Origin: a virus
Length of the DNA stretch: 64,000 nt
Reading direction: 5' to 3' (one strand)
IMG/VR virus record: IMGVR_UViG_3300034272_001701
Location: 32,001 to 96,000 of that record
The notes beneath the pieces were generated by a model. The model did not search any database, was not told the DNA's origin, and saw only the letters and a list, made by a program, of their open reading frames with translations. Below, in pieces: positions 2,434 to 61,900 of this stretch (its first letter is position 1; each line of letters opens with the position of its first letter). The translations under genes were made by a program, and so were the position numbers.

Positions 2434-3152
2434 ATCGTTTTTTTACCTTTGGATGCAGTTTTACTAATTTTCCTTATCCTACTTATGCGGACATATTATC
2501 ACTAAATTTTGATTCGTATCAAAATTGGGGCAGAGGAGGCTCTGGAAATCATTTTATTTTTAATAGCATAATTGAAGCCAATCAACGAAATAATTTTTGC
2601 CCGTCAGATACTGTTATAGTTCAATGGACAAATACCGGCAGGGAAGACAGATATGCCCACCGCGGATGGATAGGTGATGGGAATATTTACAGCCAACTGA
2701 CTTATGATGAAGAATGGGTTAAAAAACATATCACAGAACGCGGATGTTTGTTAAGAGATTTAGCATTTATACAAGCGGCGTACATGATCTTAAAAAATAT
2801 AAATTGTAAATTATATTTTATTTCTTCTGTTCCAATAACAAAACACGATGATTGGTTTGATATAATATCATTGAAAAATAATGATGTATACAATTTATAC
2901 GAAAATGTGATAAAAGAAATAAAATCGAGTTATTATGAGGTGATATTTCAGAATGAATGGAAACACTTCACTGATAACGGACAGGAAAGAGATTCTCATC
3001 CTACTCCCAACGAACATCTTGAATATATTCGCAAAGTATTACCAGAATTCACAGTTACTAATAAAATGGAAGAATTTGCTGAACAAGAAACTATTAAATT
3101 TTTAAACAATCAAAGATCTGATTTCAAACGATCAAGAGTGAAAAGATTTTAA
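2427..3152 (+). CDS. SGNH/GDSL-like protein
   Basis: N-terminal FGCSFT, block II G.GGSGN, C-terminal DSHP. Confidence 0.65.
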   Translation: MLNRFFTFGCSFTNFPYPTYADILSLNFDSYQNWGRGGSGNHFIFNSIIEANQRNNFCPSDTVIVQWTNTGREDRYAHRGWIGDGNIYSQLTYDEEWVKKHITERGCLLRDLAFIQAAYMILKNINCKLYFISSVPITKHDDWFDIISLKNNDVYNLYENVIKEIKSSYYEVIFQNEWKHFTDNGQERDSHPTPNEHLEYIRKVLPEFTVTNKMEEFAEQETIKFLNNQRSDFKRSRVKRF

Positions 3153-3166
3153 AGATAAATATTAAT

Positions 3167-3346
3167 ATGTGGACTCTAATTATTATGCTACACGCCGTTT
3201 CTCCAAACGTACCTCCAGCCAAAGGATCTATACTTTTATCTACTACAGGACACGAAGAATGTCTTAAAGCAAGAGATGCGGTTATACGAGGATGGCAGTC
3301 AGATCGATATCGTGTGTCAGCTAATTGTCTTCTACTAAAGCAATAA
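3167..3346 (+). CDS. Small hypothetical protein (59 aa), below the ORF-track cutoff
   Basis: MWTLIIMLHAVSPNVPPAKGSILLSTTGHEECLKARDAVIRGWQSDRYRVSANCLLLKQ fills the gap between neighbours. TAAATA (3156-3161) is 5 nt before the ATG. Hydrophobic N-terminus and two Cys. Confidence 0.6.
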   Translation: MWTLIIMLHAVSPNVPPAKGSILLSTTGHEECLKARDAVIRGWQSDRYRVSANCLLLKQ

Positions 3347-3350
3347 CAGG

Positions 3351-3358
3351 TATAAATA
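3351..3358 (+). promoter_or_regulatory. T4-type late promoter TATAAATA upstream of queD
   Basis: Exact match to the T4 late consensus TATAAATA in an intergenic position. Confidence 0.65.
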
Positions 3359-3364
3359 AAATTC

Positions 3365-3445
3365 TACACAGCGGCCTTCCTGGCTCTTCATCCCGCTTTA
3401 CAAATTCTGCAGGCCTATGCTAAAATCTTAACATAGGAGAATAAA
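3365..3445 (+). promoter_or_regulatory. Structured 5' leader of queD, candidate cis-regulatory RNA
   Basis: Stem AGCGG(3370-74)/CCGCT(3393-97); alternative pairing GGCCT(3373-77)/AGGCC(3411-15); hairpin CCTATGCTAA(3414-23)/TTAACATAGG(3428-37) overlapping the SD AGGAGA(3435-40). Confidence 0.45.
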
Positions 3446-3949
3446 ATGTCTTTAGCAACGAGAGTTTACAAATACACAAGCACAAAAGAATATCACGATG
3501 CATTTCCATGTGCATATCGTCAATGGCGTGCCGATAGCCATTGCAATCTAATTCACGGCTATAGCTTTAGCATGAAGTTTTACTTTGGTACAGATGATCT
3601 GGATGTGCGTAACTGGGCTGCTGATTACGGCGGCCTCAAAGAACTTAAAAAGATTCTAGAAGACCAATTTGACCATACACTAATTGTAGCAGCGGATGAT
3701 CCCGAATTGGCCACATTCAAGATGCTACAAGAACGTAAAATGGCCAAGATTGTTGTGCTACCCAAGCTAGGTTGCGAAGGGCTTGCTGACCAGTTATACA
3801 AATTTGTTAATGGTGTATACATTCCTGACATGTGGGGGCCAAGCGAAGCCGAACGTCTTTGGTGCTATCGTGTAGAAGTACGCGAGACACAAGCTAACAT
3901 GGCTTTCCGTGAAGGACATAGAGAATGGAATGAGGATTTGTTCGCTTGA
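3446..3949 (+). CDS. queD: 6-carboxy-5,6,7,8-tetrahydropterin synthase / PTPS family
   Basis: HCNLIHGYS, DYGGLK..K..L..QFDHT, GCEGLA and VEVRET. Good SD; near queE. Confidence 0.85.
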   Translation: MSLATRVYKYTSTKEYHDAFPCAYRQWRADSHCNLIHGYSFSMKFYFGTDDLDVRNWAADYGGLKELKKILEDQFDHTLIVAADDPELATFKMLQERKMAKIVVLPKLGCEGLADQLYKFVNGVYIPDMWGPSEAERLWCYRVEVRETQANMAFREGHREWNEDLFA

Positions 3950-4182
3950 ACGATAACTTTGAAAATTTATTGTACCAGGCAGGGCTAACGGCACAAGGAT
4001 GTTGGGATGAGATGGACGAATACGATCAAGCGGCCATCTTACAATTTGGTCGACTTGTTGTACAAGATTGTATTAAAATACTACATCAACAAGAAAGAAT
4101 TCCCAAAGGGTACCTTTATGCCAAACCTGCACACATACATGAACTAGCAATCAAACAACATTTTGGAATAGACAATGAGTAA
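3946..4182 (+). CDS. Hypothetical protein
   Basis: TTG start overlaps the queD stop; overlaps the queE start; ends IKQHFG. Confidence 0.6.
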   Translation: MNDNFENLLYQAGLTAQGCWDEMDEYDQAAILQFGRLVVQDCIKILHQQERIPKGYLYAKPAHIHELAIKQHFGIDNE

Positions 4183-5047
4183 AATCAAGGTAGCAGAATT
4201 ATTTTATAGTATTCAAGGCGAAGGCCGCTATATGGGTGTACCAAGTGTATTCTTGCGAACATTCGGATGCAACTTTAAATGTGCTGGCTTTGGCATGCCA
4301 AGAGGTGAAATAAGCATTGAAGCGGATGATATTGCATACACCCATGCCAATATTGAATCATTTCACAAGTACGAGGAACTTCCTTTGGTTAGTACAGGTT
4401 GTGATAGTTATGCCAGCTGGCATCCTGCATTCAAGGATCTTAGTCCTGTACTAACTAGTGATGCAATTGCAGAACGTATTATGGAAATTCTTCCGCACGG
4501 TAAGTGGAAAGATGAGCATCTAGTTATTACAGGTGGTGAACCATTGTTAGGATGGCAGCGCAGCTACGAGGATTTACTAAATCATCCTCGTATGCAAAAA
4601 CTAAAAGAAATTACGTTCGAAACTAACGGCACCCAGGAGTTGTCGAAAGAGTTTAGACACTATCTATTAGACTGGACACTGAATCCCAAACTTGGTCGCA
4701 GAGGCCATAATGCTCTTACATTTAGCGTAAGTGCTAAACTTCCTGCTAGTGGTGAACGTTGGGAAGATGCTATTAGACCCGACATTGTTTGCAGCTATCA
4801 AGAAATTGGTCATACTTATCTCAAGTTTGTTGTGGCTACAGAAGCGGATGTACAAGACGCATTAAAGGCTCATGAACAATATCGCAATGCAGGATTTAAA
4901 GGTGATGTGTATCTAATGCCAGTAGGCGGTGTAGAAAGTGTTTACTCGTTAAACAATCGCACAGTAGCAATGGCTGCAATGAAACATGGATTGAGATATA
5001 GTGATAGATTGCAAGTGCCGTTATTTAAAAACGAATGGGGCACTTAA
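4175..5047 (+). CDS. queE: 7-carboxy-7-deazaguanine synthase (radical SAM)
   Basis: ELFYSIQGEG..G.PSVFLRTFGCNFKC...CDS, VITGGEPLL, FETNGT, LKFVV and RLQV. The cluster motif is split as CX3CX39C. Confidence 0.88.
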   Translation: MSKIKVAELFYSIQGEGRYMGVPSVFLRTFGCNFKCAGFGMPRGEISIEADDIAYTHANIESFHKYEELPLVSTGCDSYASWHPAFKDLSPVLTSDAIAERIMEILPHGKWKDEHLVITGGEPLLGWQRSYEDLLNHPRMQKLKEITFETNGTQELSKEFRHYLLDWTLNPKLGRRGHNALTFSVSAKLPASGERWEDAIRPDIVCSYQEIGHTYLKFVVATEADVQDALKAHEQYRNAGFKGDVYLMPVGGVESVYSLNNRTVAMAAMKHGLRYSDRLQVPLFKNEWGT

Positions 5048-9075: not shown

Positions 9076-9274
9076 TCTGGCATTTAAAAACTTTAATAAC
9101 AAAGTGCAACAAATGAACCAGTCTGGTAGTCGACAGTTGATGTTAAGCGCAGACGAAGCTAGAAATTTACATGCGGACATTTATATTCTTTTGGCCAACT
9201 TGGCGGAAATGCAACCTGCTTCCGAAACAGCCACAGCTTCCGAAATATCAATGGACGGAGGCGGTTTTAAGTAA
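9062..9274 (+). CDS. Hypothetical protein
   Basis: Coupled ORF ending MDGGGFK. Confidence 0.65.
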   Translation: MQKLSLAFKNFNNKVQQMNQSGSRQLMLSADEARNLHADIYILLANLAEMQPASETATASEISMDGGGFK

Positions 9275-9319
9275 ACTACGCCGTTATTTGTCATAAATAT
9301 ATAATCAAGGAATCCAGCA

Positions 9320-9607
9320 ATGGCAAGACCTAAACCTACTGTGTTGTTAGAACACGTGAACAAAACTAACTACAAAAGTGATCAAGTACTAAGTTCCGAA
9401 GGAATTTGGGCAGTGTTCTACGATAATGCACCTATTAATTTAAAAACTCATCACACTCTGCTACACTACCCTGGTCCCAAGTATAAAAAGGTCAGCTTCA
9501 GCAATAGCGGACATGCTATTAATCTAGCCAAAAAACTCAACACTCTGTTTAAAACCGACAAATTCACCGTGGTCCTAATGAAACAAGGTGACCAAGTCTA
9601 CCCATAA
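9320..9607 (+). CDS. Hypothetical phage protein
   Basis: Preceded by TAAATA (9294-9299) and an AAGGA SD; contains YPGPKYKKVSFSNSGHA.NLAKKLN. Confidence 0.75.
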   Translation: MARPKPTVLLEHVNKTNYKSDQVLSSEGIWAVFYDNAPINLKTHHTLLHYPGPKYKKVSFSNSGHAINLAKKLNTLFKTDKFTVVLMKQGDQVYP

Positions 9608-9953
9608 TCAACAAAGCTATACAGAAAGTATTTTGCATGCGGCAGGACGTAGTGATGCAGAATATACCAAATGTATCAAAATTTGGTGGTGGAACTATAC
9701 CAATCCGAATAATCTAAGACTAAGCAAGACCGGGTTTCAATTTATAAAGAAGTTTACTCAAATTCCTGTGTACGAATGTACACTGCCAGAACCATTACGT
9801 AATAGGACACTGATTCAATTAAGCAGATTGATGACTTGTCCGTATTACATACACAAAATTGATCAAATATCTGTACTAGGTGAAGAAGAGTACGTTATGT
9901 TAAAATTACATGCGGATAATCTGCAACAATACTTGGACAACTTGCAACTTTAA
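9588..9953 (+). CDS. Hypothetical protein
   Basis: GTG start overlapping the upstream gene; LRLSKTG and CPYYI. Confidence 0.65.
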   Translation: MTKSTHNQQSYTESILHAAGRSDAEYTKCIKIWWWNYTNPNNLRLSKTGFQFIKKFTQIPVYECTLPEPLRNRTLIQLSRLMTCPYYIHKIDQISVLGEEEYVMLKLHADNLQQYLDNLQL

Positions 9954-9959
9954 CAACCG

Positions 9960-9988
9960 TTGCACATAATTCACGTTTTGCATATAAT
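9960..9988 (+). promoter_or_regulatory. Sigma70-type early promoter
   Basis: TTGCAC-N17-TATAAT; strong SD AAGGAGG before ATG 10015. Confidence 0.65.
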
Positions 9989-10014
9989 ATACAGTCTTCG
10001 TTAAAGGAGGGCAT

Positions 10015-10350
10015 ATGCAAGCTCGTACATATATTAGCAAATATGCAACACGCAATAACAAAAAAGCAATAGTTCAATATTACAAAATACCCGCTACAAC
10101 AAAATGGGTAGAGTACATGTTGGACAAGCATGATATTAACAAAATACTAATGGATAGCGATTTTGCAACAAAAATGGACTTGTTAGAAGTTTTGCAAGTT
10201 TTAGAGCGCAAAATTGACTATATGTATAAGCATCCAAATTTTGAGTTTAAAAAAGCAACAGATTTGTTTCATGTTTTAAAAAATGCAACTAAAGTTGCAC
10301 CTTTAGCAATACCCAAAAAAGTTGCAAAAAAGCAACATAAAAAACGGTAG
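10015..10350 (+). CDS. Hypothetical basic protein
   Basis: Has its own promoter and SD; DNA is rich in GCAA/TTGC words and A-tracts. Confidence 0.65.
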   Translation: MQARTYISKYATRNNKKAIVQYYKIPATTKWVEYMLDKHDINKILMDSDFATKMDLLEVLQVLERKIDYMYKHPNFEFKKATDLFHVLKNATKVAPLAIPKKVAKKQHKKR

Positions 10351-10376
10351 ACTAAAAAGACCCATTTTGCTATACT
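10321..10376 (+). promoter_or_regulatory. Sigma70-type early promoter with upstream palindrome
   Basis: GTTGC-AAAAAA-GCAAC (10321-36), then TAGACT-N17-TATACT (10348-76) with a TG extension. Confidence 0.6.
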
Positions 10377-10422
10377 ATGTCTGTTGGGTAGTTAATTTTA
10401 ACTGTAATTTATAGGAGAGTAT

Positions 10423-10818
10423 ATGTCTAAGACTTTTACTTTTGCGGGTACTTGCACTGAGAACGGTGCAGTTGTTTACAAATTTGCTAACGACGCTAAC
10501 CGTGCTAAGGCACTTGAGCGTTTTGGTTGCACTAACATTGAGATCCTGCCGTTGCCAAATGCAATGGATAAAGAGGCGGCTGTTGCTTACTTGAACAGTA
10601 TTGGCATTACTGCTACTAAGGCGGCTCGTGTTGCTAAGGCTGCAAAGCCTGCTACTGTCAAAGTCAAGGCTGCTAAGACTACTAAAGTGGTTGCAACCAA
10701 AGCCAAGCGAGTGCCCGCTGAGCTCAAGCCTGGCATGGATGCTGCCAAGTTCTTTGATACCTGGATGGCAGACAAGACTGTCAAAGCCGATGCATGGCGC
10801 GAGAAGAACGGCATCTAA
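10423..10818 (+). CDS. Ala/Lys-rich putative DNA-binding protein (histone H1-like segment)
   Basis: AKAARVAKAAKPATVKVKAAKTTKVVATKAKR; SD AGGAGA. Confidence 0.6.
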   Translation: MSKTFTFAGTCTENGAVVYKFANDANRAKALERFGCTNIEILPLPNAMDKEAAVAYLNSIGITATKAARVAKAAKPATVKVKAAKTTKVVATKAKRVPAELKPGMDAAKFFDTWMADKTVKADAWREKNGI

Positions 10819-12074: not shown

Positions 12075-12422
12075 ATGAAATTTCATGTCACCAAACTTGA
12101 CGGAAGATATACCGGTAGTAGCTGGTTCAAGTATCGACTAGAATTTATTGCAGAAGCGTATACATATGGATACGACGGTCGTAAAAGTCGTGCAAAGCAA
12201 CACCAACAAATGCTAGAATGGCTCTGGGAACACTATGGACCGGGGTGTGAAAGAGATCACTGGAAGTTTATGGCGTTCATAGATGAAACTACTACGAGTC
12301 TTGAAGCAAGAAAAAACGGTCCACGATGGGCATGGTTTGTTGATCAAAAAAATAATATCCCATACATATATATTGTCAATGATGAGACATTGTCTCACAT
12401 CCAACTAAAATGGACCAGTTGA
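12075..12422 (+). CDS. Hypothetical protein (small paralogous family)
   Basis: EWLWEHYGPG...WAW...IYI..DETL..I.LKW. Confidence 0.65.
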   Translation: MKFHVTKLDGRYTGSSWFKYRLEFIAEAYTYGYDGRKSRAKQHQQMLEWLWEHYGPGCERDHWKFMAFIDETTTSLEARKNGPRWAWFVDQKNNIPYIYIVNDETLSHIQLKWTS

Positions 12423-12447
12423 CTATAAATCCATTTTGCGCTATAAT
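12419..12447 (+). promoter_or_regulatory. Sigma70-type early promoter
   Basis: TTGACT-N17-TATAAT; spacer CCATTTTGC is shared with the 10348 promoter; SD AAGGAG. Confidence 0.7.
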
Positions 12448-12473
12448 ATACATATAGTTAAGGAGCATAACAC

Positions 12474-13739
12474 ATGGCAGATTCTACTGTAATTGATAAA
12501 GCAAAAGCAGTAACCGTAACAGATCCGCGCACAGATGCAGCGGCTCGCGAAAAACTTACTACAGCTCGTATTGGCTTGCTACTAAAGGCTCCGTTCTTTG
12601 GTCAGCTAGCTACTCGTATGACGCTTACTAATGCGGACGAGTGGTGCTCGACCGCTGCTACAGACGGACGCAAGTTCTATTATAATAGTGAGTTTGTAAA
12701 CAAGATGCCGTTAAAACAACTCGAGTTCTTGGTCGGACACGAGATTCTACATGCGGTGTATGATCACATGGGCCGGCGCGGCGACCGTATGCCACGTCTA
12801 AGCAATATTGCTGCTGACTACTGTGTCAATCAAGATCTTGTGGACCAGCGCATTGGCGAGAAGATCAGTGTAGTGCCTATTCTGTATGACGCCAAGTTCA
12901 AAGGACAGAGCTACGAAGAAGTGTATGACTATCTGTATCAAAATGCAGACAAGATTAACATGGATCAACTTGAACAAATGGTGCTCGATGATCACCTGGA
13001 AGATGGCGAAGGTGATGGTGGCGATGGTGATGGAGACAAAGACGGCAAGGGTCGTCCCAAGCTTAGTAAAGAAGAAGCACAGGCCATCCGCGACGAGATC
13101 AAGGGTGCTGTGATTGCAGCGGCTCAGGCAGCAGGCGCAGGTAATTTGCCTGCTGGTGTCAAGCGTCTACTCAAAGACATTACTGCGCCAGTTATTGGCT
13201 GGAAGGAATTGCTGCAACAACAGATCACCAGCGTAATCAAGAATGACTACACCTGGGCTCGCCCGAGTCGTCGAGGCTGGCACATGGACGCCGTTATGCC
13301 TGGACTCAAACCCGGAGAAATGATTGATATCTGTATCGCAATGGACCAGTCTGGATCCATTAGCGAAGAAGACAGTCGTGCGTTCCTTGGTGAGATCAAA
13401 GGAATCATGGAATCGTTTGATGAGTACAAGATTACACTATGGTGCTTTGATACGGAAATCTACAATGTTCAGACTTTTACAAGCGACAACATTGATGACA
13501 TTATGGAATATGAACCCCAAGGTGGCGGTGGCACTGACTTCATGGCCAATTGGGAGTTTATGAAAGAAAACAATATCGAACCCAAGAAGTTCATTATGTT
13601 CACTGACGGTATGCCGTTTGATGAGTGGGGTGAAGAAGAATACTGCGAAACTGTTTGGATCATTAAAGGCAACCCAGGTTGTGAACCACCATGGGGTATT
13701 TGGGCACACTACGAAGAAGCCGCCAAAGGAGGTAGATAA
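12474..13739 (+). CDS. Metallopeptidase-like (HExxH) plus VWA domain protein (DUF2201-like), likely partner of the AAA ATPase
   Basis: TAATDGR, HEILH, NIAADYCVN, MIDAS DQSGS, GGGGTDF and FTDG. Confidence 0.85.
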   Translation: MADSTVIDKAKAVTVTDPRTDAAAREKLTTARIGLLLKAPFFGQLATRMTLTNADEWCSTAATDGRKFYYNSEFVNKMPLKQLEFLVGHEILHAVYDHMGRRGDRMPRLSNIAADYCVNQDLVDQRIGEKISVVPILYDAKFKGQSYEEVYDYLYQNADKINMDQLEQMVLDDHLEDGEGDGGDGDGDKDGKGRPKLSKEEAQAIRDEIKGAVIAAAQAAGAGNLPAGVKRLLKDITAPVIGWKELLQQQITSVIKNDYTWARPSRRGWHMDAVMPGLKPGEMIDICIAMDQSGSISEEDSRAFLGEIKGIMESFDEYKITLWCFDTEIYNVQTFTSDNIDDIMEYEPQGGGGTDFMANWEFMKENNIEPKKFIMFTDGMPFDEWGEEEYCETVWIIKGNPGCEPPWGIWAHYEEAAKGGR

Positions 13740-31703: not shown

Positions 31704-32370
31704 TTAAATACCTAGTTATTGAATCAAAGATTTGTTGTTTGGTATACATGTAAGGATATAACGATACCTTTGCAGAATATTGCCCGTTTAATTTTAAATT
31801 ACTAAAAAACTTTTCTATTATTTCTTGATTACCAATTGGCTCTGATACCAAATTGGTTATTTGAATTTTATTTTTGATTGCGTTGTTAATATCAGCATCT
31901 AAGTTATTAAGGTCGTACCATTGTAAACAGTTATTTACATTAATTTTATCTAAATACAATTTATGTTTTAAATCGTATAAAATATTTTTTTTGATATTTT
32001 TGTGTACCAACGCACCTAGACGTAGAACATATGCTTCGTCAAAATAATGCAAAATTTGTTCTTCGAGCCAAAGTCTATTACGCCCATAAGGAAAATTATT
32101 TCTTAATACACTGTCGACTGTTCCTAATAGCACAATCTGATCAATTGACGTTCTTCTTAAATTTTCAAAAAGAAGCCTTATATTATCAAAATCTTTTTCT
32201 TTGTTAGCATTTGCTTCTAGTCTGTTTCCACTTGGTGCAGCTACAAATACTTTAGTAAATGATTGTTTAGTTATATCTGAAATATTGTAGGAATTAAATT
32301 CATGTGTATAATTAATTACCTGCTTTAGATAATTTCCTACAAGACCATTGGACCCTACGATTGCTATCAT
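31696..32370 (-). CDS. NAD(P)-binding Rossmann-fold protein (epimerase/reductase-like)
   Basis: IVGSNGLVG, TVD, YGRNRLWLE and LRL.ALV. Confidence 0.7.
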   Translation of the reverse strand: MIAIVGSNGLVGNYLKQVINYTHEFNSYNISDITKQSFTKVFVAAPSGNRLEANANKEKDFDNIRLLFENLRRTSIDQIVLLGTVDSVLRNNFPYGRNRLWLEEQILHYFDEAYVLRLGALVHKNIKKNILYDLKHKLYLDKINVNNCLQWYDLNNLDADINNAIKNKIQITNLVSEPIGNQEIIEKFFSNLKLNGQYSAKVSLYPYMYTKQQIFDSITRYLNE

Positions 32371-49915: not shown

Positions 49916-52900
49916 TCATGGTGTATAACTCACTTCTTGTCTAATAAATTGTGCTGCTTCGGATGTGCTTCCTTCTAATCCTACTCCTGTTCCAAGCGGT
50001 ATCCATAAATTACTTTGCAGTATTGTATCGCTTGTTAGAACAACATTTCCGCTACTGTTTACTTCACCGAGTATTCTCATTGCTCTTACATTTGCTGCTG
50101 TTGTTTGCCATGTGCTAGATCCAGGGTTGAATATTGCAACAGTGTCGGATCCAATTGTAAGATTTCCGGACACAAATTGAACTGCAACTGTGTTTGATGA
50201 GCTAACTGTTTCTAATAGTTTTACATTTGCAGTATTGGAATTTTGCGTAATGTAGCTTCCAACATTGGCTGTAATTGGAGCTCCTAATTGAATTCTCCAA
50301 GTTACGTTTGCTGCAACATTAAATGAACCAGTTAATGTTGTAAATTTTGGAGCAGTGTTAGGTAAAACTTGAACAAGACTGCTGTCAACTACTTTTGTGC
50401 CTGTTGGGTGTAAATTGGCTGCGCCGGTACCATCAACACCTCTACGCAGTTGCGATAGTGTGTTTACAAAAACTTGTCTTACATTGCTGCTGCTAATATA
50501 AGCAGTTGAATTTGCGTAAACATTGGCCAATACCAAATAGGTATTACCACTGTGAGCAATCAAATGGTCTGGTGCAAATACTGTGTTTGGTGTCCATGGA
50601 TCGGCTGTTAAAATTTTAGCAGCATCATATTTTTGATAATAATGAATTAATTCGCCGTTAATAAAAACTTCGCCGGGAATACCTACTGCTGCACCAGGAT
50701 CGGGTAATAGAGATGCATCAGTTACATATACATCAGTATCTGTAATATTTAAATTGGCAGACAAGGTTGTTGTTGCATTGCCACTGATTCTGTAAAATTC
50801 AATATTGCCCCTCATTGGTTGGAACTCTCTGAATCCGTAGGTAGCAGTGTTTGACGCATTATTTGTAAACACTCTTAATTCTAATGCGTCAAACACACGC
50901 CCCGGAATCAATTCTTCTGGAGCATGACTACTGTATCCATCAACATATGCACCACCAACTATATTGATATCTTCGGGTCTAGTTCCCAATGCTGTATCTT
51001 TATAGAAACTGGCAATGTTTGAATCTAGTAAAGTATCAATAGTTAAATTTGTAATTTTAACATTTGCAGTGCCGCCTGCTATAATTTCAGATATTCTAGC
51101 CGATTGCGGAACACCGTTAATTGATATTGTATTGGCTGAAACTGTAAAGCCAGTGATACTGTGAATAATTTGTATAACGTTGGCACTAGGATAATCGTGC
51201 AGCACAAAAGCATTGGCCCTGGTATTTGCTTGGGTAATATAATCCCCAGCTTGCAAGCTTACATTACTATTTAAAGTTATAGTATATAATGTTTCAATTG
51301 GAGGACCAGCCAACATCATTTCACTGTGATCAATGCTTATAATTCTAAAGTCTGCATTGTTCTTAAATGGAAAATCATATTGTCCTTGAATTCTCAAAGT
51401 ATCATTAAGATCAAAACCTCCTTTAGCAAAATCAACTTGTTGAATATTTGCACTGGTAATTCTCATTCCTGTGTAATTGAATCCAATTACATTACTTGTA
51501 ATAGCATAACTGTTAGCAAGGAAATTTTTACCTTCAACTTTGTTTCCTGGGTATTCTGTACCAAACATTAATTGGCCAAAATCTTTTCCAGGTCTTCCTA
51601 CTTCAGCAAAATAGTATGATGTGATTCTATCAGCAGCCGAAAGCAATACATTACCATCGTTAATTTTAGTATAACGTGAAAAATCAAAAACAGATTGACT
51701 GCTAACATTTGCATTAGTAGCAATGTACGCTACATTATTATAATAAATTATATTACCACTAGTAATATACACATTGCTTTCAATTGGCACTATACCAACA
51801 GAATTAAAAATATAATTCTGAACAGAGTTTGTACTAGAATCGCTGACATACATACCAGTGCCGTCATATTTAAAATATAAACCTGTTGCTGTACTGGTAT
51901 TCAAACGATAGCTGTTAGAAAAAGTTGCAGTAGAAATATCCCAATTGGTTGATAACGTATACTCAAACAAAGTATCGTTTTGTTGTCCCACTATATAAAA
52001 TTTTGTACCATCAGGTTTGAATCTTAGTGCAGTTGGGAAATTATCCTGTGCAGTAACGGAGATGTTTTTTCCTGCATAACTAGCAGTTTCTACTTGCCAA
52101 GGAGTAGATAACGTATATTGGTATACACGGTCATTTAGTGTACCAAGTACGTACATGTTAATTCCGTCTTTACTGAATTCTATTGCACGAGGACTAGATT
52201 CTTGTGATGAAATACTTTTTGCAGAAACATTTGATGCGGTATTGACCATCCATGGTGTAGCCAATCTATATTCATATACATTATCGTTGGTTGTTCCAAC
52301 AATGTACATTTTGACACCATCGTCTCTAAAATATAAACCTTGCACATTTGTATCTTGTGCTGCAACACTAACAGCACCAACATTGGACGCTGTAGTTGCA
52401 TCCCATGCAGTACTTAATGTGTACTGGTAGATTCTATTAGAGTCATTACCTGCTATGTACATTTTGGTGCCAGTATCATCAAAGAATACTTCAGTGATAT
52501 CTGCATCTTGATCGCCCAAGCTATTATTGGTTTCATTGAACTCCATTCTATCAAGATTCCATGCATTGGCTTTGTTTCCGTCAACAATTATTGTTTGTCT
52601 GTAAGCAGTATTTGGTTGCCATTGAACAATATTACTTGAATAAGTAATTCTGTCAAATTTTAATGTTGTTGTAATATCTCTTACTGTGTTATAACTACCA
52701 TTGGTATTATATTCGTTATGCAGAATTGGATAAGCTGTTGCTCCCGATCCTACGCCATTTATAAAAACTGTAGGTGTTGAGGTATATCCTGACCCAGGAT
52801 TGATTACATAAATTCCAGTCAACTTGCCAGTGGCAGGATTGATTGTAGTTATGGCACTGGCACCATTGCCACCACCACCAATGATTTCAACATTAGGGGC

Positions 52901-55900
52901 AGTTGTATAATTAATACCCGCGTTTCCAATTATATAATCAGTTATCTTGTATTTGTAATTTTCAGCGTATGCAGAATAAATTGGTAAATTAAAATATTCT
53001 GCGTCCGTTGGTGAATTAATATCAGGAGATTTATAAATTGATTCTGTTGTATAATATCTACCAGGAACATCAAAATCTGTCCATGACCCTGTGGCGATAT
53101 CAATTTTACTATATAACGGGACATATTCTCTAACCGCAGTGCGATAGGGTTTGGCTTCGTTGATGTATTCGTTATAGAAGCTTTGATTGTCTCTGATATA
53201 GTTAGGAATTTGTTCCAGTGTTCTTAAATTATGGTACACATCAATGAAACTGGTTTTAAATATCCAATCTGGATTCTTTTGTTCTGAGAATATGTAATTG
53301 ACTATCGAGAAAAATGTCTTATTAAATTCTCCGGCTAAACTGTTAATTAATAGTTCTTGGTAAACGCTATCAAATATTTTACCAATTTCAATACCAGCTG
53401 TTGGATCAAAATCAATTATATCAAAAACAGTTGTATCAAATCCGGCTCCCCAGAGAGTTTTATATAGCCTATCACTTAAGGTCAAAGTAGCATTTTGAGC
53501 TGCAATAAGTGTTAGACTTAAATCAGACTCAACACGATATATCTGCCAATTGCCTGCTCCATCATCTAAAATTTGTATATATTGATCAGCGACCAAGTCA
53601 AATGTCTGAATGGCTCCATAATTAAAAACTACCTGACTGATATCTGTGCCTTCTACATATTCACTGCTATACCAATCTTTTGGAGTCCACCACAAATCTG
53701 TTTTATAACTTTGAATTGCTTGTAAATCAAACTCTTTAGTTATACCGTTGAATCTATAATATGTCCAACGGCCGCTATATCTAGAATCAATCGGAATTAA
53801 AATTGTGTATCCGTCTGCAAACGTATCCATATCAAGATACGATAATTCAGCAAACGATGCAACTTGATCATCAAAATTCACCGGCGGCGCTTCTTCGGAA
53901 TACAATTCCGAAGCATTGCTTATTAGTAATACCGGATATTGAACAAAAATTTCGTTTAGATTCTGAACGTAACTTTGTAAAGCAGAAATTCTATTTACAA
54001 AAATTCCTTGTCTTGGTCTAATTAGCAAGCCAAGTTGATTTTCTGCGTTTAACTTAGGGTCTGGTACTAGCTTCCCTGCTTCGTCGAATCCTCGATAACT
54101 TTCTTTAAGTTTATTAATTATTCTTGCTGGTAATACCTGACTAGGATTACCTTGTTGAATCAATTGATATTCGTTGTGTATAATGTTAGAATTATTGATA
54201 TCACAAGTTTCTATGTGCAACACTATATCTTTACTGGTTAAAAGATTTGACACATTATACAAAGCAGCACTATTTGTAGCAATTGCAGCAATATAAGGAA
54301 TATTTTGATCTTTTGGATTACTGATATAACTCTCCAAGGAAGATACACTCAGAGTTCTTTTGGCTTTGATTGAATCAACTGAAGTTTTTCCCCCAACCCA
54401 ATAGTAGTATTTCTGTGAAATTATACCAGTTGCTGGGTCGACGATATTTACGCTTGTGTAGGCAGAATTATCGGGATATTTTGGTGTGCCGTTGCCACCA
54501 TTGGCTGTATACTGACTAGGTAAGAAATTACTTTCGACCCATTCATAAATTTTAACTTGACTGCCCGGGAATAAATTCCCCCAGTTTTTGACCCTGTACT
54601 GCAGAGGACCTTGTTCGTATTCAATGAAACTTGCCCGACTGGTATCCCACCAGGTTCTTCCTACGTGTCTATTACTCCAATAGAAAGTGGTGTTTAATAT
54701 ACCGTCGCTTCTGGAAACTGTATTATATGATGCAGGATCGTATTCTTCTTTATAATCTAGTTCCTGATCAACAATTCCTAATATTTTTCCTTTTGCAGGA
54801 TCGTATGTATCAAAGAAATTAATAATTGTTTGATTTTTCTTGTTATAAATGAACGCAGAATTCAATGATTTTGGATCAACTTGACTATCTTTGTATCTTA
54901 TTAATTCCCATCCTGCTTTATTGTTTTGATTATAGTAAGTGTAGATGCTGCCGCCACCAGGTACAATGCTAAAATCATTACTTACGCCCACTGCCATGGT
55001 GCCGTCGACAAGACTTACACTTGAACCAAAATTGAATCCTGTTTCTAAATCAGGTCCAACTAATTTTTGTGTAAAGGCAAACGTTGAAGGATTATCGACT
55101 GACTCAAAAGGATTTTCAAGTAAGTCATACATGTAAACAGCACCTGAATCTTTTACTCTGTCTACAAACAAAGTGCTATTACTATCAAATGTAGTTAAAG
55201 ATACCAATTGGTCAAACGATATAGGAATATCAATATCGGCACCTTCACTGCCTACGCCAATGACTCCGTACGACTGAGATAACCCCAAAGAAGTTCCAAA
55301 TCTTTCGCCAATATTATTAGGATGTTTAATTGTTTGAGTTTTTTTGTAAATCTGTATTCCAAGATCACTAAAGGCAGTTCCCACGCTTCCGGGCTTAATA
55401 TCAAGCTTGTCATTTGCCACAACTACATCGCTGTTTATTCTCAGTTTGTTTTGATAAATTTCGGCACTGACACCTGGGATATTTGCATTATTAATTGAAT
55501 TTACTACACTTGTCAATGTAGTGCCTGAAAACTGAATGTTTCTATCATTGATAACTAAAGTGTGACCGGCTGTGACTGTTGGGTTGCTGACACTGCCTGT
55601 TATCTGTCCGTAGACTCGACCTACGTTTACATATCGTGTGATCAATCCTGTTGCATAGTTAACTTCGGCATAATAAGGACTGCTAATATATAAATTACAT
55701 CCTGTGCCACATAGGGCCAAAATACTTCCAAATTTTTGCCCAGTGATACCAATATCAGAAGCATTTAATGTTTGATTTAAGATAAATTGATTGGTTTCAA
55801 CTCGTACTCTTTGTCCTGCAGTGGGCGTAGAGAATCCCGGAAACTGTACAACATTTAAAGTGCCGCCAGGTCTATACCAATCGGTGCCTTCTCTTAACAC

Positions 55901-58900
55901 ATTGTTATTGAACAATACTCTATAGACATCGTTAAAATTGTCCGGAGCGGTAAAGGTACCCGAAAATCCATCAGTTGTGAATTCTGTTATAGTCCTATGA
56001 TAAACATAAACTATTCCCTCGTTCGCCACACCATTCAATGATTTTGTGTTTGCGCCTATTGCGATTGTGGAACTATCTCTATTGGTGGAAATTGCACATC
56101 CAAAATTTGTTTCCGACTCTCCAGTTATTGTCTCTATTAATTTGTAGTAAGATGATCTTCTCAGTACATCAAATCTTTCAAAATTAGTAGGAGCTGTTCC
56201 AAAAGTTAAATTTGTCACCGATCCTTTGCTAGACACTGTTATGGTAATATTGTTTGCCGGTGATGCACCGCCTAGACTGGTTCCTGGAATAGTCAGGGTA
56301 TCTCCGTTGCTATATCCTGATCCGCCATTTATTCTTATTACTGAATAAACACCAGAATTGCTATTAATAACAGTGAATTTAGCTCCAGAACCTGAACCAC
56401 CAGTTGCACTGACATTGGTATATGTCAATGTTCCGCCGCCGGTAACTCCAGTGCCTGAGTGTGTAAAAGAAATAATGCCATTGGATGCTTGAGTAATAGT
56501 GTAATCAACTGTAGGAACATATTCGGCTGATCTTAGTACTGCAAACACTACAATGTCTGTTGGATCGTCTACAGTAGAAGACAAAGTAAATGCAGTGGCA
56601 GAACCATCACCTTCAAATGATTGTGTATCTTCTGCTCGGGTCTTCAATGCATAACAAAATACTTTATCGGCGCCCGGGGATCCTATATAAAGATAAACCC
56701 CATCTCTACTCATTGCCAACGATTCACCAAATTTGTAGTTTGCTGAACCAGATGGATCTGTTAATAATTGTACTAACACTCCATCCTTGTATACGTAAAC
56801 ATATCCTCTGTTCGTTGCACTGTCAGGTGCGCCTACAGCAAAATAACCTGTGCCGTTTGCCAATGACTTACCAAACCCGTCTAGATTATTACTATTACCG
56901 TACAAAAACGAACTAGGAGCCCAGGAATTAGTTCCAACTCTACCAAAAATAGCAGCTCTTCCTGTACCAGACTCTGGAGCTCCTGCATATAGGAAATTGG
57001 CATTGTTAGGATCTAAGCTGACAACTTTTCCAAAAAAATCGTTTCCTGATAATTTACTTGCATCTAATTCAATTTTTGTTGCAAAATTCCATGGATCAAT
57101 TTTGTTGTAAACACCCCAATTTTGATTTTCGTCAAGGTTATTCACCCATATTTTATCGTTTGGTATCCACCCGGCAGTGGGTCTAATAGAGTCTACATCT
57201 TTTAAATAATCAATTTTGCTTGATGTTAATTTAAACAATATTCCTATACCAGCAAATGCCTGTGTTTCTTGCATTTGCTGAAGATTTTGATACAGACGTA
57301 CATAAAATCTAGTACTGTCAATTATACTATCAACTTGATAGACGCCATCAAATTGCGGTTCAAAATTTTTGATTACCACAAGATCATTAACAGTTAAACC
57401 ATGATCTCTATCAAAAATAACTTCCACTAGATCGTCAATGTTATATCTAAGGCCAAAAATATACCCATTTACCAGACTGGCTCTATAGACATTCCAATTT
57501 TTATCAAAGTCTCGTGCTACCCAAATTTTGTATCCTATACCAATGTTATTAACAATAGTTGTTAAAGTTTCATAATCACTCAAGTCAAATATTGTTGCAT
57601 CGATATCATCTAGGTTTACAAATCCAGCAACCGGTAAAGGTTTAAAGGCATTCGGTTCTTCCATGCTGTTAACACGGAATATGTTTGCTTGATATTCTCC
57701 GGATGATTTAAATATGTTGTTAATATCAATTGCCAGTACGTCTGATTCTTCTTGTACTGTATTATCAATCAATTGAAAAGCTGTTGGATTACTACTAAAA
57801 TCAGATTCGTTTAATTCAAATTCAAAGAATTTATTAATATCAGTGGCGCCATACTCGCCAACACGAACAGCCCAGTTTTCGTAAAAATTAATATCAGTGT
57901 CTAAATTTCCAAAAGTGGCTCCTTGTAATGCATTAAGTGCATTTACTGTGCCTTTTTGTTTAATGAATCCTTGATAGAATTTACTCTGTGTAGTTGGATC
58001 TATACCTAAATTTGTAAAATATTCTCTGTTTCTGAATCCTATTAGTCCGTTACTAAACAGTTGTAAATCTTCGTTTATTGGCTGATTATCTATATCGTAG
58101 AAATTAATACCCTGTTGAGCATTGGTAGCAAAATTATTAATGACTCCAGATTTTAATTCAGAAGAAGGAATCAGTTGCCAATTATTTGTTTGGAACTGGT
58201 CTGATGCAATGACGTTTTGAATTGCAGTATAAAATCTAAATTTGTACTTAACAATAGAACCTTTCAAATAATCTTTTCCAGACTCCCATTCGTCAATGAC
58301 GTCGCTACTGTAAATAAAGCCTGGTAATTCTAAATTACCATTCCAGGTTAAAGTTTTTGCTCCAACTAGTTTTAATCGATACTGTCTATTACCTAATTCA
58401 GGAACATAAATGATGTCGTTAAAAACAGTAATATTGTCTAGTATTAGTAAATGTTCATATTGAACTAGGTCTAGTTCTGCAAACCCAACAGTTTGATCAG
58501 CGTTAGAGATAAAAGTGAATACATTATTATCTCGACTGATAGTAAAATTATTTTTTATAATTGGTTTAAAATTAATATCTAACACTCTGCTCGAGTACGG
58601 AGTGTTCTTTATTTCGTCAACAACAGATGCACTGTCAAACACCTTTAACTTAGTCGACACTGGACTTAATACAATAATACTATTGGTTTTCCATCCTTGC
58701 CCGGCCCAATGCAAAAATTCTTTGGCACTAAGAACCCAATCTTTTTGCTCTTGTAGATCGTCTTCTCTATCAATAAAAATAAAACCTTGTGCTAATAGAT
58801 ATCTTTGATAGCTGACTAGAAAATCAACTACCTGTTGTTTGGTATTAAATTCAAATCCATAAGGCACAGTGTATTTTGCTTTTTTAAAGTCTTTATAAAC

Positions 58901-61900
58901 CGTTCCTCTTTGATTTCCGGAAGTGATAGTGTATGCGTTATTATTGACTTGACTAGGAATAATAAAGAAATAAGGATTCGTTAAGTCGTATCCGCTCACT
59001 ACATAACCGGCTGCACTTTTTTCAACAATAACAGCACTATAGGTAATTTTGTTTACCGGACTACCTTTAAACAACTCAATTCTATAATTCTCTTCGGGCA
59101 CTATAACGCTATCACTAATACTGCTTGGGCTGCTTTGTTCTGCAAGTAATTCAATGAATTTTTTGTCAGTGTACCCGGCCATCTTGTATGCCAACTGAAC
59201 ATCTAGCGATGCAAGATTGTCTTTGATCAATATTGATGCATCAGCGATACCTAAATTTTTAACGTAATCTCTAATCCAGTTTAAATAACCAGAATTTCGT
59301 TCTACGGTAGTACCGTTGTTGTAGCCCTGTACCAAGAGAGCCGTAGGTGTGAGATGTTGTCCAGTGCTGGCTATTTCAAATTGAGCTGTGACTGGGTTTC
59401 TAGTGTAATTTTGAGTGTTTGCTAGCAAAGAAAAATACTTGGCTGGCTTGGCTAAAGCTAGGGCCAGTTGCATAGCAAATGCATATTCACTACTTCTGCG
59501 CCATGCAGTTTCCACTGGTCCCATATCGCCAACTGCAAAGTTGATATTAGCTTTTCCGCTATCAAAATCAGCAACAAGTATCTTTTCAGGACTTACTAAA
59601 TCTCCGTTGTCGTCAACAGGCACATATTGTGCAAGATTAGGGCGTTGATATCTTGAATCAAAACCAGACCGACTACCGGCATGAATATATCCAAGACTCA
59701 GGTCGCTCCATAATAAACCGTTTCCTCCGGTGTAAGGGGCAGGACCGTATCTGTCATTCCAATAGTCTGGCTTTTCGCTGAATCCCAACATCTCCCATGG
59801 ATGAGTATGTGGTCTATCAGTATCATAAAAATAACGATAGATACTGCGCCAAGCTCCGGGTAAAGTCTCTCCGTTGACTACGTCTCTAAATCTTCTATAG
59901 TTCCATGTGAACGGATCTGATGCATTGAAGTTATTGTTGTCTGAATAGTTTAATCTATTAGTTCCTATCCAAGACAAGAATCCTTGACTTAAAATTTGTG
60001 TAAATTCTGTCAATGAATAATCTGTAGGTCTAAATTTGCCTGGTATGTAATCATGTACATTAAAAATGTTCGTGTCGTATTGAACTTTAATATTATTATA
60101 AATTCTACGCTCTAATTCTAATATTAGATTGTCTCTAAAATCATTGAATGCCGGTATAATACTACCATCATGTCCTTGAATTACATTTATTGGTTCTCTA
60201 TAGGTATCGTCTACATAAATTTCAGGATAGAATTTTGGATACATTCCCATCTTGGTTGGTGTTTCGGGAACAAAGCAGCCGTCTGTGGTACTGTATTCAA
60301 CAATGTCAATTTTATCGCCATATAGTAAACCAAATGAGTCATTGATCGTAATCGCTGGCCGATCCTGTCTGAAAATAAAATCTCTGTCTTTGATTAATAA
60401 TGTTTTTGATGTAATGGTATTAATTGTTCTTGTGAGATAAACTAGAACAGCTTTGTTGCTTATAACTTTATCATTGAAAATACTTGTAATTTCATAACTT
60501 GTAATATCTGGGTCTAACACTGTATATGTAGGAATTACAGTTTTGCCTAGATCTCCATATGGAAACATATCACTGTAATACCAAGGAAACGATTCGTTTT
60601 TAACGGCATTAATTTGTAGCATAATAGCATCTACGCTGCCTGCAACGTCATCGCGATTTAAATCTAAATTACCTGCTAGTTCTAAAAATTTAATCTTGAA
60701 TTTTGTATATTCTCTATTGGCCAATTTAAGCGCATTTACAAAATTCATTGTAGGATGATTTAAAAATAGCCCAGAATAAACTACAGGAGCACTGTGCTGT
60801 AGAACACTTCCCCCTTTATTCATATATTGAATATCTCTTAGATTACTGTTTCCAGGAACCTTACCAATGATATCTAAACTATTGTTTTTTAGCGTAATCA
60901 AATGATTACGCATTTGCCCTAGTGTTAATGTTTCAAGATTGGTATTTAAACTATTCACATCAAGATTAAGAGGTACTTCGTAATATGCATTTGGTGAAAC
61001 TAAATCTTTATTAAAGATGCTAACAAAAATAACATCATCTTTAACAATTAAATCAGGATTGACTAGCACTGCAAATTGATCAACTACACGAGTTACTGCA
61101 AAATTTCCTATGTCCAAGATCGCGTTGTTTACTGTAACTTTTATGTTTGGATTAATAATACTGGTATCAGGTATATTATCAATTGGAAATAGGTTGGTTT
61201 CGCCATCGTATGTGAATTGATAATTTTGATATTGATGGCTAAAGTCTCTATTAATAGTCCAAATGTTCTGTCTTTGACAAGTTGATACGCTAACATTTTT
61301 TTGTAAATATCCTGCATTTACTGTCACTGTTTCTATACCACCGCCACCAATGAGATAATCAAATGTTTGAGTATCATAATCATTTGTGAACTGAATATCT
61401 CCTTGACTTACAAAGTTTTTATAACTTAGCGGAAACCCAATGACAGGATCATTGTTGCCAGTTCCTCTTTTGTAAGAAAATATTTTTGTTCCTTGAAATG
61501 TTGTACCAGGATAAACAGAGCTGTCAGAAAAACTTATACCGTCATCGTTAATTAAATCAAATAATGGTTCTTGATTATTACCGGTTTTTTCTTGAGACGC
61601 GGCCCACGACGTTCCATTATAATACCAATGTTTTCCGCCATTTGATCCCGACAGAACAAGAACTGTATTTCCTGCCACCACAGTTGCATCTTCTGCTTCT
61701 TGGATAAAAGCTTTATACACCAATGGATCAGGCGCTTCAGTGGTTGTTTCTATAGAAAATTTATAAATTTTATTTCTTACATCATTATTAATGTCATTGG
61801 AAAAAATAACCCTATCGCCTGTAGTAAGAGTCAAATCGCCCACTGTGAATGTTTTTTCATCAACACAAACTAATCCTTGTATCTGTGTAAAAGCATTTGT

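Follow-up and report, generated by a model that had tools for sequence, protein, structure and literature searches.

The leader of a phage queD-queE operon contains a small, conserved RNA structure that, taken as a whole, is best explained as an RNA switch, most likely a riboswitch (a probability of about 0.6). The leader lies in the 64-kb stretch of viral DNA analysed here (hereafter the window; positions 32,001 to 96,000 of IMG/VR record IMGVR_UViG_3300034272_001701), between a box, TATAAATA, and the start codon of a queD-like gene. More than 270 loci of uncultured phages share the element, in approximately 150 distinct leaders; it occurs once per locus and nearly always directly 5' of a gene for a QueD-type protein. 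Its two helices, P1 and P2, form on comparative evidence an H-type pseudoknot, and the 3' strand of P2 is shared with a hairpin that occludes the ribosome-binding site (RBS). That the leader is a conserved structured RNA is very probable in our judgement; that it is a ligand-sensing riboswitch of the ON type is a more tentative proposal, to which we give somewhat less than an even chance.

An earlier note on this DNA, made from its letters, had proposed that the leader is a new translational switch with two mutually exclusive folds. The box, the 87-nucleotide (nt) leader (3359-3445, followed by the ATG at 3446), the hairpin, the Shine-Dalgarno (SD) sequence, the stem and the pairing segments that it named are all present, as confirmed by a sequence check and RNAfold. 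Its remark that the leader is relatively rich in G+C and that genes mostly overlap is likewise borne out, as the G+C content of 3367-3448 is 0.44 against about 0.37 for the window, and neighbouring genes overlap by 1-14 nt in most cases; the gap 5' of queD measures 99 bases. RNAfold yields a hairpin identical to the one proposed, 3414-3423 with 3428-3437, in which 9 of 10 pairs form and the AGG of the SD sequence is covered, and this hairpin stands out when taken alone (-7.1 kcal/mol, z -2.56).

The relatives of the leader were collected by several routes. Close relatives of the QueD protein are encoded on more than 595 IMG/VR stretches, 80 of which were compared; nhmmer found the leader in 70 of these 80 loci despite differing upstream genes, with nucleotide similarity usually beginning at or shortly after the TATAAATA box. 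A pattern scan with the 19-nt near-invariant core CCCGSTWTAHAAAYTCYGC added 120 further viral loci with one copy each; a QueD homologue stands directly behind 141 of 156 distinct instances, the remainder being mostly followed by a more distant PTPS gene and a few by an intervening open reading frame (ORF). When a QueD type much less like that of the window (the type of locus L193) was used instead, the motif was present in 79 of 80 loci, ending exactly at the start codon; the contigs IMGVR_UViG_3300010885_044017, 3300032226_000620 and 3300009163_001531, among others, were found by both this search and the pattern scan. A covariance model gave 100 matches in 100 sources, one per locus, and a single match in the whole 112-kb record from which the window was taken. 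Because there is exactly one copy per locus and per record, we rejected a general promoter or a repeat as the identity of the motif.

Outside uncultured viruses the element was nearly absent. The 19-mer gave at least 120 matches in 596 Gb of prokaryote genomes, against approximately 200 expected by chance (an estimate), and in every match except one P1 and the remaining parts of the motif were missing. The sole exception (L236) has a complete motif and a queD gene, the latter of the same type as in locus L160, on a 183-kb contig, NZ_JBBAKG010000001.1, binned as a Haliscomenobacter sp. metagenome-assembled genome; this contig is probably a large phage genome binned with bacterial sequences, or else a hint at the host. 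In cultured phages there was no DNA match to the leader, and the QueD relatives there are all less than 60% identical. Inspection of three cultured phages showed queD abutting or overlapping the gene before it, or preceded by an unrelated 67-nt gap, and the covariance model found no match. Separately, the QueD proteins of the cultured phages Iggy and BcepGomr share 47-55% identity with the QueD type of locus L374.

Covariation among the relatives identifies the helices of the element (coordinates for the window are collected in the table). The stem proposed in the earlier note, which corresponds to P1, is real, and occurs as AGCGG/CCGCU, ACCGG/CCGGU, AGAGG/CCUCU, AGUGG/CCACU, UGCGG/CCGCA, AUCGG/CCGAU and AAGG/CCUU. 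On one alignment (A3), 97.4% of P1 cells are paired and three of its five pairs have changed on both sides (AU/UA; GC/CG/AU/UA; CG/AU/UA). The SD hairpin varies in the same manner (AU/UA, GC/GU/AU and CG/UG, with, for example, CUCUAUU/AAUAGAG in L162 and CCUAUAU/AUAUAGG in L048). P1 and the hairpin together have a covariation score of 0.305, compared with 0.121 in shuffles, none of 500 reaching the observed value, and with no more than 0.108 for slid partners.

P2 joins a segment inside the P1 loop to the tail 3' of P1. Its variants include GGCA/UGCC, GGCG/CGCC, GGCU/AGCC, GGUG/CACC, GGGC/GCCC, GAUG/CAUC, GGCUU/AAGCC, ACGAC/GUCGU, AUGGCAU/AUGUCAU, AUGACAU/AUGUCAU, AUGACGC/GUGUCAU and AACG/CGUU, with a wobble intermediate, GGUG/CGCC, also present. 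In its three core pairs 89.3% of cells are paired, compared with 76.8% in shuffles, 35 cells show double changes against 8.1 +/- 2.3, and the covariation score is 0.402 against 0.183 (0 of 500 shuffles) and at most 0.109 when slid; these in-register values are biased in that the alignment was fitted by a model containing P2. A register-free test, in which the best helix between loop and tail is compared with that of permuted tails, is free of this bias and ignores phylogeny; it gave 3.27 against 2.98 +/- 0.06 for the main class (z 4.7) and 3.87 against 3.54 +/- 0.06 for all classes (z 5.3), with no permutation reaching the observed value in either case. The fourth P2 pair (N-N') was tabulated by script, its column being an insertion in model R2. 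Among the non-Watson-Crick cells of all helices, G-U exceeds A-C (25:8, 42:24 and 21:6), which fits an RNA transcribed in the + direction. We also considered an inner hairpin, GCC..GGC, inside the P1 loop and dropped it, as by eye a stable form of it is not kept in the relatives.

These results support part of the earlier proposal and revise another. Covariation in homologous leaders, one of the checks named in that note, is found in P1, P2 and the hairpin beyond the shuffle and slide controls, and the leader is conserved, gene-specific and structured, with one strand shared between the knot and the RBS-occluding hairpin. The alternative pairing was misassigned, however: GGCCU (3373-77) and AGGCC (3411-15) are both present, but 3412-15 covaries with the loop segment GGCU (3382-85), and changes of the tail to CACC, GCCC, UGUC or AUGUCGU are accompanied by changes in the loop segment and not in the GGYC beside P1. 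Two exclusive folds thus do exist, but P2 competes with the base of the SD hairpin and not with P1, which belongs to the knot.

The joining loops are close to invariant. Nearly all of 167 instances have NCU(U/C) as the first four letters of L1, with C10 and U11 at least 90% conserved (alignment A1). Every L2 ends in UC(A/G)N(N)C, and its final C, C26 of alignment A1 and C3392 of the window, is invariant in 59 of 59 sequences. L3 has the nearly invariant consensus U(U/A)UA(C/U)AAA(U/C)UC(U/C)GC. In the class whose P1 is AAGG/CCUU (the AAGG class), L3 is shortened to (C)UAAUUCUGC, with only UAA before UUCUGC, and the knot measures approximately 36 nt; across classes it ranges from about 36 to 46 nt.

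Features of the queD-queE leader and operon in the window
Feature	Position	Strand	Remarks
TATAAATA box	3351..3358	+	Candidate -10 element of leader promoter; predicted start ~3363-3366
P1 5' strand, AGCGG	3370..3374	+	Pairs with 3393-3397
L1, CCUUCCU	3375..3381	+	Family consensus N-C-U-U, then variable length
P2 5' strand, GGCU, within P1 loop	3382..3385	+	Covaries with 3412-3415
L2, CUUCAUC	3386..3392	+	Ends in unpaired, invariant C3392
P1 3' strand, CCGCU	3393..3397	+	Pairs with 3370-3374
Nested sigma-70-like promoter, TTTACA-18 nt-TAAAAT	3397..3426	+	Predicted; TG at -15/-14; overlaps L3, P2 3' strand and hairpin loop
L3, UUACAAAUUCUGCA	3398..3411	+	Near-invariant; 3' half UUCUGC kept across all classes
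P2 3' strand, GGCC, switching sequence	3412..3415	+	Common to knot and SD-occluding hairpin
RBS-occluding hairpin, CCUAUG (3414-19)/CAUAGG (3432-37), with inner 3-bp extension	3414..3437	+	RNAfold and covariation
Shine-Dalgarno sequence, AGGAG	3435..3439	+	6 nt 5' of ATG; A69-G73 invariant in alignment A1
queD-like gene (PTPS, T-fold)	3446..3949	+	First gene under leader; Pfam PF01242, 7e-14; PHROG 2389, 7.5e-36
78-aa ORF, no assigned function	3946..4182	+	Overlaps queD and queE
queE-like radical-SAM gene	4175..5047	+	PHROG 2076, 1.8e-52

We propose that the leader (about 3363-3445) acts as a cis-acting RNA switch. Its sensing part, 3370-3415, would fold into the compact pseudoknot, with a P1 of 5 base pairs (bp) and a P2 of 3-7 bp between the P1 loop and the 3' tail, and the near-invariant joining loops would mark a specific binding pocket; the most likely partner would be a small molecule of the pathway from guanosine triphosphate (GTP) to 7-deazaguanine, making the element a riboswitch. 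For switching, the P2 3' strand would have a second role and pair, probably along with UUCU of L3, with the RBS; as long as no knot forms, a hairpin would hide the SD sequence or, in other classes, the AUG. Stabilising the knot would release the RBS and allow QueD and QueE to be translated, giving an ON switch at the level of translation.

In the window, C3414 and C3415 are part of P2 and also make the first two pairs of the hairpin, CCUAUG/CAUAGG, that buries the first half of the SD sequence. As the P2 3' strand is common to both, knot and RBS occlusion are mutually exclusive, and from this pairing logic a translational ON switch is predicted. When 151 distinct leaders were folded without the knot, 127 of the minimum free energy folds had the P2 3' strand paired to the SD/AUG region. 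In the AAGG class and in the class with P1 UGCGG/CCGCA (the UGCGG class), the P2 3' strand opens a covarying helix with the region around the start codon, which buries the AUG; variants of this helix include UGCCAUUG/CAAUGGCA, UGUCAUCUU/AAGAUGGCA, CCAUUAUU/AAUAAUGG, CCCAUAA/UUAUGGG and GCCAUAU/AUAUGGC. The knot-free fold of the window segment extends the hairpin by AUUCU (3404-08)/AGAAU (3438-42), to -8.3 kcal/mol. We considered this extension as a covarying helix and did not retain it: the relatives are compatible with it, but only UCU/AGA is constant and, by eye, no covariation is seen. There is no intrinsic terminator in the leader region of the window.

Besides the two limits on the P2 statistics given above, several points weigh against reading the leader as an RNA switch. 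By its single-sequence fold, the leader is no better than shuffled sequences (102 nt, -16.4 kcal/mol, z -0.53; z -0.12 for an 85-nt slice), so that its significance rests on the conservation and covariation seen in relatives. The two top G-C pairs of P1 and most of L3 never vary and therefore give no structural information. The TATAAATA box of the window offers no canonical -10/-35 pair, and transcripts from the promoter nested in the leader would lack the knot, as their start would lie inside the leader. In addition, switches of the ON type are uncommon in front of biosynthetic genes; the known preQ1 riboswitches are without exception described as repressing (PMC10622847).

Candidate promoter elements 5' of the knot differ between the classes. 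In the main class, which includes the window, there is only an (A/T)TAA(A/G)TA box 8-14 nt 5' of P1, kept in most relatives although the upstream genes differ. The UGCGG class, in contrast, carries TTGACC-N17-(TG)TATAAT ending 7-8 nt before P1, and the AAGG class TTGACA-N17-TATAAT ending roughly 10-20 nt before it. Because these divergent classes have canonical promoters just upstream of P1, the knot is predicted to lie in a 5' leader, and since the genes are co-directional, read-through from upstream would include it too. A T4-type late promoter was also considered for the TATAAATA box and rejected, as the box occurs once in 64 kb against 8.35 copies expected, with no recurrent use; the looser pattern [ACT]ATAA[AG]TA has 16 sites in the window, only 3 of which are followed by an SD-like sequence. 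As a side observation, TATAAATA is several-fold depleted on both strands, as is ATAAATA (9 found against about 39 expected from base composition, an estimate), and such depletion would fit a functional signal.

The nested promoter, which the earlier note had missed, raises the alternative that the conserved signals are DNA signals only. In that case a sigma-70-type promoter (TTTACA-N18-TGcTAAAAT, 3397-3426) would be accompanied by an upstream and overlapping operator palindrome, and the 5' arm of the hairpin would never be transcribed. With 10 of 12 consensus matches and an extended -10 (TGcTAAAAT, 3418-3426), this is the best sigma-70-like site in 2900-4300; it resembles the other promoters of the phage in the window, and 95 of 146 distinct leaders retain its arrangement, 94 of them with the TG. 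The hairpin loop CUAWAAU is also unusually conserved for a loop. However, a promoter cannot account for the compensatory changes between the P1 arms, nor for those that link its own spacer to a part of the loop lying 5' of the -35. In about 150 variants the putative -35 never begins with TTG; it is invariant even where a 6-nt insertion places it 24 nt away from the -10-like box. In the AAGG class the knot is kept without the nested promoter, and a canonical promoter lies upstream of it. We consider an explanation by DNA signals alone very improbable. The nested site may be a second, unregulated start in a subgroup, or a by-product of L3 and the hairpin loop; if it exists as such a start, it may well add to the RNA switch, not replace it.

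A more serious contender, though one we still regard as unlikely, accepts the knot and assigns it a different partner: a protein (autoregulation by QueD or QueE, another phage or host factor, or ribosomal protein S1), or no ligand at all, with the element fixing the level or timing of translation. Covariation, gene specificity and the shared strand fit a switch worked by a protein equally well, and pseudoknot operators bound by proteins have precedent, as in the rpsO/S15 case (PMC3985624). On the other hand, a knot of about 36-46 nt with near-invariant single-stranded joints in front of a biosynthetic operon is the usual signature of a small-molecule aptamer. Conservation is higher in the RNA than in the QueD protein, and the motif accompanies four QueD subtypes of widely differing sequence, so a QueD-specific contact would itself need high conservation; queD was also the one conserved partner gene seen next to the motif.

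The closest known family is the preQ1-I riboswitch (RF00522), whose types I-III are likewise compact H-type pseudoknots with a 5-6-bp P1 and a P2 between P1 loop and 3' tail (PMC10622847). Both have a U in L1, both stand before queuosine or 7-deazaguanine genes (queD and queE being classic members of the preQ1 regulon), and preQ1-I acts on translation, as is predicted for the leader. The invariant unpaired C that ends L2 directly 5' of the P1 3' strand resembles the preQ1-I specificity cytidine in its position (PMC10622847), and L3 of the main class starts U(U/A)UACAAA, A-rich like that of preQ1-I. The leader might then be a diverged member that binds preQ1 or preQ0 through this C and represses queD as feedback. 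What speaks against this is, first, the make-up of L3, which in the leader has 9-14 nt (13-14 nt outside the AAGG class, where the A-rich part is almost gone) and ends in an invariant UUCUGC just 5' of the P2 3' strand, compared with 6-8 A-rich nt in preQ1-I. Second, the G-C-rich, 3-7-bp P2 does not contain the SD sequence; instead, its 3' strand lies 20 nt 5' of it and is complementary to the SD/AUG region, acting as an anti-RBS strand and predicting ON where preQ1-I is OFF. Third, the preQ1-I covariance model does not match, which agrees with the impression in the earlier note that this is not preQ1-I: on short slices of 89, 77 and 87 nt, one for each of three classes, a search at E<=10 returned only spurious low matches, including microRNA models, and none to RF00522. 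For these three features (L3, repression through an SD in P2, and the model match) we did not file the leader as preQ1-I. The loops NCUU (L1) and UC(A/G)N(N)C (L2) are its own, the motif is found only in uncultured phages, and QueC was not found in the 112-kb fragment (31% complete), so that the phage may not make preQ0. Membership in preQ1-I with feedback repression is accordingly doubtful and has in our estimate a small probability.

Other RNA families came no closer. With Rfam 15 there was no gathering-level match in the window or in 20 motif-bearing loci. PreQ1-II reached 16.5 bits against a gathering threshold of 47, on unstructured flanks only. Freshwater-2 RNA (RF02980), a cis-regulatory motif named for freshwater, gave weak matches of 15.1 and 12.0 bits on two divergent leaders (gathering threshold 49.9); we rejected it as the same motif, since the alignment is confined to the A-rich SD/AUG tail and passes over the structured part of the model. 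SAM-II/SAM-V, preQ1-II, guanidine-III and fluoride riboswitches are, like the leader, small H-type or related pseudoknots acting on translation, but none of their Rfam models matches it at gathering level. The predicted logic is that of translational ON riboswitches whose anti-RBS strand is part of the aptamer, such as the adenine riboswitch of Vibrio vulnificus add. In add-type switches, too, formation of the aptamer withdraws a strand that would pair with the SD or AUG, while fold (a three-way junction and not a pseudoknot), genes and size are unrelated. To judge from sequence comparison, the leader would work in the manner of a small pseudoknot riboswitch, but it has conserved loops of its own and a predicted logic opposite to that of preQ1-I. 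In the literature searched we found no description of the leader motif.

For the riboswitch that we favour, the genes of the operon bear on the choice of ligand. The protein encoded at 4175-5047 is, from sequence similarity, a divergent QueE: NCBIfam QueE models match it weakly, mostly at the N-terminus, and it falls slightly below the Pfam Radical_SAM cut-off (27.8 against 29.5 bits). The 78-aa ORF between the two genes probably belongs to the same operon, and a FolE gene lies 5 kb upstream of the queD-like gene. Neither QueC nor TGT had a Pfam match within the 112-kb fragment (31% complete), and the phage pathway may thus lack QueC and perhaps not make preQ0. As the pathway appears to lack QueC in this incomplete genome, GTP, dihydroneopterin triphosphate (H2NTP), 6-carboxytetrahydropterin (CPH4), 7-carboxy-7-deazaguanine (CDG) and 7-deazaguanine are candidates as much as preQ0 or preQ1; routes without QueC have been described (PMC10516641). 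By analogy, and speculatively, the invariant C3392 suggests that the ligand has a guanine-like face.

In its most specific form, the proposal is of a phage-only riboswitch class, absent from Rfam, that binds an intermediate or precursor of the 7-deazaguanine pathway (e.g. GTP, H2NTP, CPH4, CDG or 7-deazaguanine) and switches ON the translation of QueD and QueE; we hold this to be possible, at odds slightly below even. Few riboswitches are known in phages, where 7-deazaguanines in the DNA are a defence against restriction enzymes, and we know of no riboswitch that controls the enzymes replacing guanine with 7-deazaguanines in phage DNA; none over such phage enzymes was found in the literature searched. 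If the proposal is true, no riboswitch known before it would govern DNA-base hypermodification, and que genes would have their first switch of the activating kind. It is abundant and small, with hundreds of natural variants and several expression platforms on one aptamer core, and could serve as a test case for a new mode of ligand-RNA recognition, for ON control by a minimal pseudoknot and for how phages time the making of modified bases. Should a pathway intermediate be bound, it would also provide a natural sensor for 7-deazapurine or pterin metabolites.

With respect to the genomic setting, the source record is a 112-kb IMG/VR viral record with a CheckV completeness of 31%, and is therefore taken to be part of a much larger phage genome; the DNA of the window is present in lake-water metagenomes of 20 studies, and none of the sequencing runs listed as containing it is an RNA run. 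The QueD of the window has relatives in, among others, Pseudomonas phage Iggy, where the protein is annotated as QueD. By sequence, the QueD-type proteins encoded behind the motif belong to at least four subtypes (window, 3446-3949; L193, 289-738; L099, 1832-2359; L160, 1426-1908), all of which have CxxxHGY against CxxxHGH in canonical QueD, and Y or F at the position of the N-terminal His ligand.

A few loci deviate from the common arrangement. In L021 (1346-1406) and L195 (1355-1416), partial copies of the motif, with the A-rich box and the P1 hairpin and without L3 or P2, lie approximately 600 nt upstream of the complete motif, each followed by an additional ORF that begins MKIYLYVKQHKI. 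The arrangement looks as if a gene had been inserted and the 5' half of the leader duplicated in the process. A different ORF, of 243, 276, 85 or 113 aa, stands directly behind the motif in L037 (2184-2265), L041 (2047-2129), L084 and L130. In L037 and L041, queD follows some 750-900 nt further on, and the switch would there control a different first gene.

Elsewhere in the window, the intergenic regions 9953-10015, 10350-10423, 12422-12474 and 9274-9320 carry sigma-70-like promoters (TTGACT/GTTGCA - 17 nt - TATAAT/TATACT), often with TTTTGC before them and AAGGAG ribosome sites after. To judge from these, canonical promoters and SD sequences are in use in the host, and this speaks against a member of the Bacteroidota. 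Among the large minus-strand genes, a single ORF of 4690 aa (49916-63988, - strand), which reaches the edge of the window, encodes a giant protein.

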